Assembly (NCBI GenBank): GCA_965228735.1
Contig: OZ245838.1
Coordinates: 1,120,001-1,184,000 of the forward strand
Direction of reading: 5' to 3'
DNA length: 64,000 bases
Source: Planctomycetota bacterium
GTDB taxonomy: Bacteria > Planctomycetota > UBA1135 > UBA2386
In this document: in pieces, positions 17,596 to 24,923 of the stretch
Position numbering within the stretch: position 1 is the first letter of the stretch
Layout of the letters: the number at the start of each line of letters is the position of its first letter
Program-made: the position numbers and the translations under genes
The notes under the pieces: model-generated
What the model was told of the DNA's origin: nothing
What the model saw: only the letters and a program-made list of their open reading frames with translations
The model's database searches: none

Positions 17596-18009
17596 TCAGC
17601 GCTGCCAGAAGCCCTGCTGCACGCCGGCCTGCAGGTAGACGGCGAACAGCTCGCCGCTCGGCATCGGCGTCGGGCCCATGGCGATCTCCGCGCCGTTCGC
17701 TGCCGCGCTGGCCACGGCGGCCTCGATGTCCTCGACGAGGAAGTAGGGGCGCACGACCGGGTCCTCCGTCGCGCGCATCGGGGCGCGAACGCCGACCGTG
17801 CCGCCGTTCGGCAGCTTGGCCGTGCGCGCGTTGCCGAGCTCCGGCACGGCGTCGCCGAACGTCAGGCCGTTGGCGGCGGCGTAGGTCGTGCACAGTTGGT
17901 CGACGTCGGGGGTGACGATCTCGAGGTAGTGGATCTGCATCGGGCGTGGTTCGGAGGTGCTGACGCAGGCGGTCAGCAGGGCAAGGACGGCGAGGGCGAG
18001 GGAGCGCAT
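17596..18009 (-). CDS. VOC/glyoxalase family lipoprotein
   Basis: Lipobox LLTAC; YLEIVTPDVD, PYFLVEDIEAAV. Confidence 0.75.
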   Translation of the reverse strand: MRSLALAVLALLTACVSTSEPRPMQIHYLEIVTPDVDQLCTTYAAANGLTFGDAVPELGNARTAKLPNGGTVGVRAPMRATEDPVVRPYFLVEDIEAAVASAAANGAEIAMGPTPMPSGELFAVYLQAGVQQGFWQR

Positions 18010-18019
18010 GTGGGGAAGA

Positions 18020-19492
18020 CTACGGCGTCGTGCCGCCAGCGAGAATGCGTTCGCGCAACTGATGCAATCGGGCGACGACGTCGGGGCGCTCGAGCCACAG
18101 GTTGGTCGCCTCGCCTGGGTCGTTGTCGAGGTCGTAGAGCTGACCCGCGGGCCCGTTCGGCGACGGTTCGAGCCGGCGCGGCTTGGAGAAGCCGCCCGAA
18201 CCGAGATGCGTGACGAGCTTCCAGCGCCCCGCGCGTACGACCGCGCCGCTGGCCTTGAGCAGGGTGTGTTCACGCGTGGTTGACGCCTTCGGATCGCGCA
18301 GAACCGGCACCAGGCTGTGGCTGTCCTCGCCGGCGCCGGCTGGCAGCGGCGCGCCGGTGAGCTCGGCGCAGGTGGCCATGAGGTCGGTGAAGCAGACCGT
18401 CTGGTGGGTGGTCGAGCCAGCGGGCGCGTTCCCGGGCCAGCGCACGACGAACGGCATGCGGTGGCCGCCTTCCCACGAGTCGCTCTTCATGCCGCGCCAG
18501 GGTCCCGTCGAACTGTGGCCGAGGCGCTCGACATCCGCGGGATACCAGACCGGGCCGTTGTCCGATGTGAAGACGATCAGCGTGTCCTGCGACTGGTCGT
18601 TGCGATCGAGCGCCTGCAGCACGCGCCCGACAGCGTCGTCGACGTCCGCGACGAAGTCGCCGTACATCCCGGCGCGGCTGCGACCCTCGGAGTCTGGCTG
18701 CGGCAGCCAAGGCGTGTGCGGCGCCGCGAGCGCGAGGTAGAGGAAGAACGGTCGGTCCGGGTCGTTCTGCGCGGCGTCGTTGAGAACCGCGATGGCCTCA
18801 TCGGTGAACTTCGGCAACACCTCGGCGTGCACGAAATCCGGCGCGAGCCCGCCCGCGCGCCAGAACGCGCCCTGGATGTTCGACCACCCGGCCGTCGCGC
18901 TGGCCTCGACCTCACCGCTCGGCGGCAGCACGGGCCGGCGATCGCGGATGTAGTAGTAGGGGGGAATGTCGAGGGAGGCGTGGATCCCGAAGAAGCTGTC
19001 GAACCCGCGATCGAGCGGCCCGCCGTGAAGTTCGTTCCGGTCCTGCACCTTGGCGCCGCCGTCGAATCCGAGGTGCCACTTGCCGACCATCGCCGTGCGA
19101 TACCCGCGGTCGTTCAGCAGGCTCGCGAGCGTCACGCGATCCTTCGCGATCACGGCCTGCCGACCGGCTCGAAACGCCTTCTTGCGCGCGGGGTATCGGC
19201 CTGTCAACAAGCCGTAGCGCGACGGCACGCACCAGGCGCCGGGCGAGTGCGCGTCGACGAACCGGACCCCCTCGTTCGCCAATCGGTCGATGTGGGGCGT
19301 CGCGATCTTCGAGTCACGGTTGAAGCAGCCCGGGTCGCCAAAGCCCATGTCGTCCGCGAGGATGACGACGATGTTGGGTGGGCGGCGCGGCAACGCTGCG
19401 TGATCCTCGTCTCCGTGGCGCTCGAGGGCGCAGCTCCCCAGCGCGACGACGAACGTGAGAAGCAGTGAGCAACGGCACAACACGGGCGACAT
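18020..19492 (-). CDS. Arylsulfatase (FGly-dependent), exported
   Basis: PNIVVILADD, CVPSRYGLLTG, GKWHLG, SDNG, EGGHRMP. Confidence 0.93.
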   Translation of the reverse strand: MSPVLCRCSLLLTFVVALGSCALERHGDEDHAALPRRPPNIVVILADDMGFGDPGCFNRDSKIATPHIDRLANEGVRFVDAHSPGAWCVPSRYGLLTGRYPARKKAFRAGRQAVIAKDRVTLASLLNDRGYRTAMVGKWHLGFDGGAKVQDRNELHGGPLDRGFDSFFGIHASLDIPPYYYIRDRRPVLPPSGEVEASATAGWSNIQGAFWRAGGLAPDFVHAEVLPKFTDEAIAVLNDAAQNDPDRPFFLYLALAAPHTPWLPQPDSEGRSRAGMYGDFVADVDDAVGRVLQALDRNDQSQDTLIVFTSDNGPVWYPADVERLGHSSTGPWRGMKSDSWEGGHRMPFVVRWPGNAPAGSTTHQTVCFTDLMATCAELTGAPLPAGAGEDSHSLVPVLRDPKASTTREHTLLKASGAVVRAGRWKLVTHLGSGGFSKPRRLEPSPNGPAGQLYDLDNDPGEATNLWLERPDVVARLHQLRERILAGGTTP

Positions 19493-19527
19493 GCCATGAG
19501 CGGACCCGCGTCCGCTGCCGACATCAA

Positions 19528-19974
19528 CTACCGCGCGCTCAGCACGCCGATCTCGCCGCCCCAGACGCCGGGCTTCTCCTCCCGAATCACGAGGATCGGG
19601 ATCGTCTCGGGCTCGAGGTCGATCGTGACGAATTGCGTCTCTGGTCCGCATTGGCGCGCCGGCGCGACGATCCCGCTCCGCGTGACCGAGCGATAGCCCG
19701 TCACCGTGACGGTGAGCGAGTACGTGCCGGGCCGTTCGAAACCACCGCGATACTCACCTTCACCGATCTCGCGCATCGGCTCGGAGTAGCCGCCGTCCTC
19801 GTCGGTCAACTGGATTGCCGCGCCCTCGACGGGCGCTGCCGTGCCGACGTCGCGCAGGTCGACGATCACAGCGGGCTCTGACTCCGTGGTGCACACCGGC
19901 AGCGGTCGCGCCGAGTTGTCACAAGCAAAGAGCAGCAGCAGCGCAGTGAACGACAGAACAGCGGCAGAACGCAT
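19528..19974 (-). CDS. Lipoprotein with carboxypeptidase-regulatory-like beta-sandwich
   Basis: Lipobox LLFAC; PVEGAAI...ERPGTYSLTVTVTGY. Confidence 0.7.
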   Translation of the reverse strand: MRSAAVLSFTALLLLFACDNSARPLPVCTTESEPAVIVDLRDVGTAAPVEGAAIQLTDEDGGYSEPMREIGEGEYRGGFERPGTYSLTVTVTGYRSVTRSGIVAPARQCGPETQFVTIDLEPETIPILVIREEKPGVWGGEIGVLSAR

Positions 19975-20383
19975 CCGTGCTTTCCTCGGGAATGAATTAT
20001 CTGGACCGATTTCGATCCTCGCCTGATGGATAGTCCCGCTGCTGAGCCGCGTAACGTGGCAGCCATCGCGCCGACGTAGATCAGGCCCTGCTTCCGAGCG
20101 GGACCGCTCTCGGCAGTGGCTTGGCAACCGCTCGCGCCATCGTCACCGCTTCGAGGCCGGGATCGGAACTCCGACGTTCGAAAGTCCTCTGGCAACGTGG
20201 TTCTCATCACCCCGCGGCATCGGCGGCAACGGCAGCGAGGCCACCCGCTCCTCCCGCGCGAGCCTCCGATTCACGCACAAACCGGAAACCGTCCCGGCAC
20301 TCGTCGACACCAACGACTCGACCGCGCGCATCGTTCGCGCCGGTGACCGAAGACCACACAGCCCCAACACCCTTCCAGATCTC

Positions 20384-20767
20384 ATGCGAAATCGATTGGC
20401 ATCGCTGATCCTGGCCGTCGCGGCCGCCCTTTCCTTCGCCCATTCCGTCGTCGCACAAGGCTCGGTGGATCCGGGCTCCCGTGCATGGCAGGTCGAGGTG
20501 AACGGAGTCACCAGCGAGACGGAGGTCATGCTCTACAATCCGGATCCCAACGGCGACGGTACCTGGGGCACGTGGCACAACTTCGACGGCAACCACACCT
20601 ACGGCTACGGCGTCTACTTCTGGGATCCGTTGGAAGGCACGATCGAATACATCAACCAAAGCGACGAAGGCGGCGGCAACCAGACCGGCAAGTACCAGTG
20701 GGACGACGGCAAGTACGTGCGCGTCGAGGCTTCCCACCCAAAGGCACCGGACATCGTCCTGCACTAG
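20384..20767 (+). CDS. Small secreted hypothetical protein (Gly/aromatic-rich)
   Basis: Signal peptide ending VVA-Q; coherent high-GC3 codon usage. Confidence 0.75.
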   Translation: MRNRLASLILAVAAALSFAHSVVAQGSVDPGSRAWQVEVNGVTSETEVMLYNPDPNGDGTWGTWHNFDGNHTYGYGVYFWDPLEGTIEYINQSDEGGGNQTGKYQWDDGKYVRVEASHPKAPDIVLH

Positions 20768-20772
20768 CGCCG

Positions 20773-20932
20773 TGCGGGCCGACCTGCGCAAGAAGCGCGG
20801 GTCAGATGCATGCGCGGGATGCTCAATGGCCTGGCCAGGCCACGCCGGCTGTCGCTTGCGCCCGACCTGCGAGCATCGGCGGCGAGTGCGCCGCGGGCCC
20901 TCCTAGCTACGAGCACCCACTAGTAGCCCCAC
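20773..20932. repeat. Direct repeat copy 1 (160 bp) containing a synonymous copy of the last nrdJ codons
   Basis: Ungapped match to 21184-21343 (offset 411), 18 mismatches by manual alignment. Confidence 0.93.
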
Positions 20933-20988
20933 GGGACCGCGGCGCCCGGCTCCAACCCAACTCGCCGAAGCCGCAAAGAACGACCAAC

Positions 20989-21020
20989 CCAGCCGCCCCC
21001 AAAACTAGGGCGGCGGCTGG
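20989..21020. terminator. GC-rich stem-loop, possible intrinsic terminator
   Basis: ccagccgccccc-aaaacta-gggcggcggctgg. Confidence 0.35.
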
Positions 21021-21039
21021 CGTAGCCAGGCACGCCAAA

Positions 21040-21294
21040 GCCGCCACCGCTCGTAAGCAGGTCGGATCAGCGCGTCCCTGGGTTGGCAGGTCGTTGAGTA
21101 TCCCGCGTGTGCAGCTGGGTCGTGATTCTCGTGCGGGTCGGCTCGCAGGAACGCAGGCGAATCCGCTGATTCGGCGAGGCTCCTGCGGGCCGACCCGCGC
21201 GAGAAGCGCGGGTCAGATGCATGCGCGGGATGCTCAATGGCCTGCCCAGGCCACGCCGGATGTTGCTTGCGCCCGACCTGCGAGCATTGGCGGC
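21040..21294 (+). repeat. Long imperfect inverted repeat (hairpin) with G-U bias on the + strand
   Basis: 21085-21150 pairs with 21181-21246; outer arms pair more loosely. Confidence 0.9.
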
Positions 21295-21317
21295 GAGTGC
21301 GCCGCGGCACCCGTTCC

Positions 21318-21343
<26 letters not shown>
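21184..21343. repeat. Direct repeat copy 2, overlapping the nrdJ stop codon
   Basis: Match to 20773-20932. Confidence 0.93.

Positions 21344-24923
<3,580 letters not shown>

Follow-up and report, generated by a model that had tools for sequence, protein, structure and literature searches.

Why does the 3' end of nrdJ, the essential DNA-precursor gene that encodes a class II (B12-dependent) ribonucleotide reductase, occur twice in the chromosome of this planctomycete, once as the working gene end and once, in a different codon spelling, a short distance downstream? In the window (the whole 64,000-nucleotide stretch that was analysed), nrdJ lies on the minus strand at 21318..24923 and encodes 1201 aa with the Pfam domains PF02867, PF08471, and PF12637. 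Two copies of a 160-nt unit, both oriented on the minus strand, cover its end and the adjoining DNA. Copy 2 (21184..21343) comprises the working gene end at 21318-21343 (26 nt of coding sequence) and the non-coding arm A2 at 21184-21317 (134 nt), and copy 1 (20773..20932) comprises a stranded tail, translated as GATSGCS*, at 20907-20932 and the arm A1 at 20773-20906. The copies have a period of 411 bp and align without gaps at 142/160 positions (88.75%), in agreement with the approx. 89% given in an earlier, sequence-only reading; this is the sole long direct repeat within 17-27 kb of the window. As that reading had also claimed, copy 1 differs from the working end by four synonymous third-position changes, beside which there is a fifth third-position change at the repeat edge. 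The 18 mismatches are unevenly spread, with five in the 26 coding nt, seven in the next 10 nt, and six in the last 124 nt, i.e., 12/36 in the tail plus 10 nt vs. 6/124 in the rest of the arm (Fisher p=2e-5). The descent of copy 1 from a working nrdJ end is supported, although any gene-end duplication would yield the same pattern. The unit is confined to this locus: blastn, nhmmer, and k-mer counts found no third site in the 7.19-Mb single-contig genome. The segment 20760-21345 contains four CTAG tetramers in 586 nt, compared with 0.87 per kb in intergenic DNA genome-wide. A small protein ending in tail 1 was considered and rejected, as the open frame of approx. 100 codons owes its hydrophobic stretch to G/T-rich sequence and its status as a gene is unsupported.

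The repeat is real and predates a strain split of approx. 4%, because junction contigs recur in different studies and in diverged strains. Contigs from the runs X5, X8, X10, X13, and X15, which belong to five different studies, each join copy 1 to the spacer. X5, which may be the source sample, and X10 each provide one 428-nt contig (20804-21231) with copy 1, the spacer, and the start of copy 2; the X8 contig covers 20804-21129, and X13 and X15, each from another study and strain, have contigs across the joint between copy 1 and the spacer. X10, X13, and X15 are diverged strains; X10 shows 59 differences in 1315 nt of the left flank (4.5%) and one differing site in the 428-nt segment. The earlier reading had raised the question of an assembly chimera of two strains, with which it would be consistent that no contig from these five runs spans both copies in full, but the same junction contig appears in several studies and diverged strains at flank-like depth, and the probability of a chimera is negligible. 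The depth of the X10 spacer contig (121 vs. 164-172) was also considered as a sign of excision, but the drop cannot be read so. In the empty-site comparison, strains X10, X13, and X15 retain copy 1, and the same-genus genome G001 lacks the arm entirely.

The 251-nt spacer between the copies is non-coding, holds no cargo gene, and is largely self-derived. In the direction of nrdJ, the order is the working tail, A2, a short loop, an inverted arm B, a 32-nt hairpin, a linker, tail 1, and A1, directly after which, and hence just beyond the end of copy 1, comes the stop codon of a convergent gene for a 127-aa protein. Arm B (21015..21161, plus strand) is a diverged, inverted third copy of the arm, which the sequence-only reading had overlooked and which makes the layout direct-inverted-direct, and it forms a stem-loop with A2 centred at approx. 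21165; nhmmer, with a profile built from the three arms, gives it E=3.5e-33, and its pairwise score against A2 is 100, compared with a shuffle maximum of 45. Inverted arm accounts for 147/251 nt of the spacer, and 13 nt more, located in the linker (20933..20988) beside tail copy 1, are an inverted start of A1. The pairing of 20945-20933 with 20888-20900 encloses tail copy 1 in a stem of its own, and both junctions of the copied block carry short inverted repeats. The arms of the short hairpin (20989..21020) weakly resemble a GC-type nrdJ tail, of which this hairpin is possibly a remnant, judging by a marginal sequence likeness (p 0.03-0.29 over five tails tried); an inverted tail remnant at the end of arm B was rejected as marginal. 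No match to an exact 25-nt arm pattern was found in metagenome contigs. A REP/REPIN or MITE origin was rejected, since the arm occurs at a single locus and the 93%-complete genome gave no Y1 transposase hit; the same absence of copies and of a Y1 transposase applies to a REPIN reading of the GTAG/CTAC ends. The host genome has an abundant, unrelated intergenic repeat family, whose top 16-mers occur at 30-70 copies, also with no Y1 transposase match.

Could the hairpin have been selected as RNA? The fold of the A2-B stem has z=-11.6 on the plus strand and z=-9.0 on the minus strand, and of the 16 mismatches in its 70-nt core, ten are G.U pairs on the plus strand vs. one on the minus strand. These values, together with the near-invariance of the 428-nt segment in X10 relative to its flank, would suit a plus-strand terminator, stabiliser, or antisense element, with A1 as an alternative pairing partner. 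However, deamination of single-stranded DNA likewise leaves C-to-T and A-to-G changes, and the G.U bias of the core mismatches fits RNA structure and deamination equally. Furthermore, the arm is absent from the relatives' loci searched, G001 included; the X15 contig, a single contig and possibly a sequencing artefact, skips exactly the hairpin core (21084-21248); Rfam gave nothing above the gathering score and only sub-threshold microRNA-hairpin matches; and no U-tract terminator was found at the A2-B hairpin. A selected RNA appears very unlikely. The repeat is likely a functionless scar, and the hairpin may now help to end transcription between the two convergent genes.

Because the block is self-derived with a direct-inverted-direct layout and has inverted repeats at its joints, the simplest account is template switching in place or break repair, with no recombinase involved and with later synonymous rewriting of the working tail; we favour this explanation tentatively. 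The absence of a foreign gene between the copies also argues for it. A fold-back would initially yield arm B and the long hairpin, and a later switch or slip would re-copy the tail and arm A downstream. The copies call for two or more steps and not for one event, since B and A are far more diverged (54/70 in the core) than A1 and A2 (118/124). The stranded copy would then drift, while the working tail would be rewritten through mutation and, probably, recombination with related alleles, but only synonymously because it is under selection. Within the 70-nt core, B agrees with A2 and not with A1 at all three sites where A1 and A2 differ, which identifies A1 as the drifting copy. The skip in the X15 contig could be as expected of an unstable palindrome, or an artefact.

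The working end of nrdJ is anomalous in itself. In its last approx. 32 codons (21318..21416, minus strand), GC3 is 0.57 vs. mostly 0.9-1.0 in the body of the gene; the last 30 codons include 13 that end in T and none that ends in A, and they rank 4/3549 for odd codon use by a synonymous-codon score (genes of at least 250 codons from a simple gene caller). G001 has a near-identical T-rich tail followed by different downstream genes, and the whole T-rich pattern occurs only in these two among 77 pattern-matching genomes of the family (91 searched). A general keto (G/T) shift of nrdJ tails was rejected, as it is not seen in the family outside the host genus, and a promoter created by the recoded tail was rejected because there is no sigma-70 match. 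In the G107 family sample, the last Gly codon is GGG-rich (30/50), which may be inherited. Since divergence is higher in the tail plus 10 nt than in the arm, and the tail codons are anomalous, the working end has been rewritten at least once, and the anomalous codons make an earlier replacement by incoming DNA in the host lineage plausible. No match to the T-rich pattern was found in viral contigs, and no donor allele in viral and metagenome contigs, GTDB tails, or the relatives' loci. With G001 as an outgroup, copy 1 accounts for three of the five tail differences and the working copy for two; three synonymous changes on the branch of a dead copy are unlikely under neutral drift (approx. 1 in 27), which calls for import or for a G001-like allele having taken the place of the working tail.

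Import is the main rival to self-copying. In such a case, DNA from a relative, carrying the nrdJ anchor, tail 2, A2, and the hairpin, would have recombined homologously inside nrdJ, and an illegitimate joint 26 nt before the resident stop would have pushed tail 1 and A1 downstream, by homology-facilitated illegitimate recombination or single-crossover integration of a circle. The exclusively synonymous nature of the five coding differences, the steep divergence of the tail plus 10 nt relative to the arm, and the rewritten appearance of the last approx. 32 codons are all consistent with this; the host genome has one ComEC-family gene, and the accessible text of PMC5361080 proposes, and that of PMC2884548 describes, such a mechanism for displaced 3' ends. 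Nevertheless, there is no foreign DNA between the copies, and the tails differ at 5/9 third positions (2/9 between host and G001), yet the arms are 95% identical and G001 has no arm. For this locus, import appears somewhat doubtful. It is a better account of the alphaproteobacterial cases described below. The earlier proposal that incoming DNA replaces the nrdJ end is well supported in other lineages (e.g., G307), but here the DNA between the copies is self-derived and not foreign.

The sequence-only reading had likened the repeat to an att scar while finding no integrase in the window. The latter point stands: the nearest tyrosine recombinase is 88 kb from the nrdJ end, and the window contains no serine resolvase (the resolvases are >500 kb away). 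Elsewhere on the host contig, at 4,707,017-4,708,499, a tyrosine-recombinase gene is followed by two partial copies at 503-bp spacing. A remnant attL/attR pair of a site-specific integrative element using the nrdJ 3' end would explain a replaced gene end with a stranded copy and a slot behind nrdJ that varies among relatives. Site-specific elements that replace a gene's 3' end include e14/phage 21 in icd and SGI1 in trmE, and the duplicated end with synonymous differences resembles these; unlike here, they have an integrase and a fixed core. At nrdJ the crossover core is not fixed, as the left boundary lies 12-242 nt before the stop, and 134/160 nt of the repeat lie beyond the stop. No recombinase was found nearby or among 73 scanned downstream ORFs of other genomes, and each of 33 viral tail matches is the end of an ORF of 105 or more codons, in most cases nrdJ, whole or split. 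The att reading in its site-specific sense is largely refuted and, for this locus, highly improbable. Eight viral ORFs of 105-237 codons (L207, L214, L227, L229, L230, L233, L234, and L235) match only the last approx. 40 aa of NrdJ and are possibly stand-alone zinc-ribbon proteins.

A dedicated agent that targets the conserved last codons of nrdJ was also considered, for example a homing-type nuclease or a small hairpin element that relies on a single-strand (HUH/Y1) transposase acting in trans. Such an agent would bring a recoded, cut-resistant tail and leave the old tails wrapped in hairpins. The stem around tail copy 1, the concentration of tail copies at nrdJ, and the GIY-YIG genes close to two T-rich nrdJ ends (73 ORFs scanned) would be in line with it, as would fungal mORFs, which give the same layout in the accessible part of PMC3630166. 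On the other hand, the 93%-complete genome has no Y1 transposase, its sole GIY-YIG match lies within a 760-aa frame 0.96 Mb away, no endonuclease gene lies between the copies, and the arm occurs at a single locus; moreover, the units of different relatives are mostly unrelated and their left ends vary. A dedicated agent is distinctly unlikely.

If self-copying formed this repeat, is the end of nrdJ prone to it in the host family? The family set comprised 61 nrdJ loci: 21 from a first set, and 40 of the remaining tail-pattern matches, for which the presence of flanking sequence was the sole selection criterion. It excludes one locus that did not match the pattern and one that belongs to another family. 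Downstream tail copies, consisting of the last 12-26 nt and the following DNA at periods of 67-411, are present at 7/61 loci, or approx. five independent events once three loci with a homologous unit are merged. By the same rule, 21/4983 host genes qualify (including nrdJ, short tandem repeats, and paralogue arrays), as do 1/109 other gene ends in the same loci, 0/26 valS ends, 0/16 SEC-C ends, and 0/117 ends in the valS/SEC-C loci. Fisher tests give p=0.04 for the nrdJ tail copies against the 42 matched valS/SEC-C ends, before correction for kinship, and p=0.002 for the five events against 226 ends, in which kin are not independent. Stop-centred hairpins (score >=10) occur at 6/61 family nrdJ loci vs. 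0.3% of host genes and 0/109 and 0/117 control ends, and in these six loci, the right arm is an inverted copy of the species' own last codons. Both the tail copies and the hairpin arms of relatives follow each species' own codons, and were thus made locally. The nrdJ end is duplicated more often than control genes, and the excess of tail copies and stop-centred hairpins favours self-copying. Against it stand the absence of the host locus from the six with a stop-centred hairpin and the modest p values, i.e., 0.04 in the family and 0.06 in alphaproteobacteria. In three loci (L013, L117, and L118 of G004, G079, and G080), from two genera, the nrdJ stop is immediately followed by homologous 112-114-bp tandem units; each of the three has a hairpin centred on the stop and a tail copy in the codons of its own host.

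Insertions of the form tail-cargo-tail occur in two family samples of alphaproteobacteria; their left ends vary, lying 71-242 nt before the stop, compared with 12-26 nt in the host family. Two tails approx. 1 kb apart were found in 3/106 genomes with a match in the G107 sample (locus L057 is titled Hyphomicrobium), i.e., G218, G180, and G147, with an IrrE/M78-like gene between the tails and a duplication of 71-98 nt ending at the stop. In the G108 sample (L065 is titled Roseibium), paired tails occur in 3/125 genomes, one of which is the selected centre. The clearest case is G307, in which native codons run until 21 nt before the end and are followed by seven re-spelled last codons, a 1.7-kb, 43%-GC AIPR gene, and then the native tail, which measures approx. 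163 nt and includes a terminator-like hairpin. Across the four tallied tail pairs, 20/22 changed codons are synonymous, and the outcome expected of import is present in G218, G180, G147, G108, and G307; nrdJ-end replacement by incoming DNA is well supported in such lineages. Doubled ends were found at 0/129 ftsZ and 0/97 secA genes, i.e., paired nrdJ tails at 5/230 vs. 0/226 control ends (p=0.06). If self-copying is the source of instability, the unstable end would in these other lineages act as a conserved homology anchor at which foreign genes are captured, with long, variable target duplication.

Other nrdJ ends add to the range of arrangements. In G239 (L300-L302), nrdJ-tail-plus-flank repeats that show no difference in the 234 nt compared enclose a 4.46-kb unit that includes a DctM transporter gene; the arrangement is distributed over four contigs and may reflect tandem amplification or an assembly effect. 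A possible further case, left out of the counts, is G198, where the second tail lies at the end of a contig, and G157 has two different nrdJ-like genes. Directly behind nrdJ in various genomes lie genes for CBASS cyclase, HEPN, TIR, AIPR, DUF4145, and IrrE-like proteins. IrrE/M78-like metallopeptidase genes, which give PADLOC capP/RmrA-like hits, are found repeatedly as the only cargo gene at this position in the G107 family and in related MAGs (L164:5051-5863, L165:4328-5236, and L166:2244-3083; also L054, L058, and L066), and at L048:688-1740, a CBASS-type cyclase (SMODS) starts approx. 40 nt past the nrdJ stop. Behind 48 T-rich nrdJ tails from GTDB, which were selected on the tail, low-GC, defence-like genes are often found; 73 of the 127 downstream ORFs were scanned and contain one DDE transposase and no integrase. 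These 48 loci suggested that a C-poor tail marks low-GC cargo, an idea rejected on loci not selected in this way: rho is 0.24 (p=0.07) in 59 mixed loci, there is no correlation in the 27 unselected ones, and rho is -0.04 to -0.11 in an unselected sample (n=46), which also speaks against import.

How does the locus compare with known systems? A literature search whose coverage includes few subscription journals found no relevant report of the nrdJ end as an integration site or hotspot. In insertion with long target duplication, as described by Furuta, Abe and Kobayashi 2010 (PMC2853133), a restriction-modification system lies between long, variable direct repeats >30 bp, which in many cases include a start or stop codon; there is no other mobile element, the empty site is known, and the cause that the authors suggest is DNA double-strand breakage. 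The present locus likewise has a direct repeat >30 bp and no other mobile element, but it targets nrdJ, the DNA between its repeats is self-derived and non-coding, and an empty site was not found; the alphaproteobacterial cases, with foreign genes between the repeats in G218, G180, G147, and G307, fit that description closely. T6SS/Rhs 3'-end displacement, as presented in the available portions of PMC5361080 and PMC2884548, shares a conserved upstream anchor, a downstream-shifted old end, and the lack of an integrase. However, the C-terminus changes function there, whereas the NrdJ protein end is unchanged and only re-spelled, with no incoming gene between the copies. ODIRA in yeast, according to the part of PMC11790251 that is accessible, also gives three copies with an inverted middle one and short inverted repeats at the junctions, but with an origin inside a kilobase-scale amplicon and identical copies; the present repeat measures approx. 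150 bp, is bacterial, lies near the terminus, and is unevenly diverged. The fungal mitochondrial mORF hybrids, as far as the available text of PMC3630166 goes, have a replacement C-terminus and a native end stranded downstream as here, but with an endonuclease ORF between the ends, of which there is none here. Many gene-turnover hotspots lack an integrase in the accessible part of Oliveira 2017 (PMC5635113), and a variable slot beside a core gene without a mobility gene is common to these and to nrdJ; those hotspots concern within-species gene turnover, whereas nrdJ shows tail duplications and fold-back hairpins.

The slot beside this nrdJ is also variable. It is bounded by nrdJ on one side and an aldehyde-dehydrogenase-like gene on the other, and its accessory genes (17596..20767) encode a glyoxalase, a sulfatase, a CarboxypepD_reg protein, and the convergent 127-aa protein (20384..20767, plus strand), which has a signal-peptide-like start by eye, no Pfam or PADLOC match, and two homologues found. 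Their GC3 of 0.87-0.97 is host-like. The slot measures approx. 3.75 kb in the host and is colinear in strains X13 and X15, whereas in G001, G003, G004, and G008, it is 0.33-2.0 kb long and has different content; the variation among relatives anticipated earlier is therefore present. Genes for exported proteins do lie beyond the repeat, as the sequence-only reading had observed, but they are outside the repeats and not between the two copies. The locus, like the entire window, belongs to the terminus zone, where GC skew is flat; a dif-like site is located 121 kb away, at approx. 1,261,975-1,262,002 of the host contig, outside the window, where a flat GC-skew plateau (approx. 1.13-1.26 Mb) ends. 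This position counts in favour of self-copying. In relatives, the distance from nrdJ to the dif-like site is 94, 96, and 162 kb (three measurable of ten searched), the last value resting on a doubtful two-mismatch match. The host contig also contains near-perfect intergenic tandem arrays at 6,057,391-6,059,050, 1,207,944-1,208,142, and 5,524,856-5,525,247, with periods of approx. 105, 55, and 152 bp, respectively; the first two include the stop region of a gene.

Taken by itself, the host locus is probably an inert scar. A broader proposal, which we consider unlikely, is that the last approx. 10 codons of nrdJ are a cross-phylum target of an unknown break-making agent and a universal, as yet undescribed integrase-free site of gene capture. 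If this were true, repair at the site would give fold-back hairpins, tandem tail copies, re-spelled tails, and the capture of single defence-like genes. At the same gene end, local self-copying is seen in the host family and foreign-gene capture in alphaproteobacteria. The end of nrdJ thus offers one conserved site at which the two can be counted against control genes, and nrdJ ends may be a place to mine for small defence genes.
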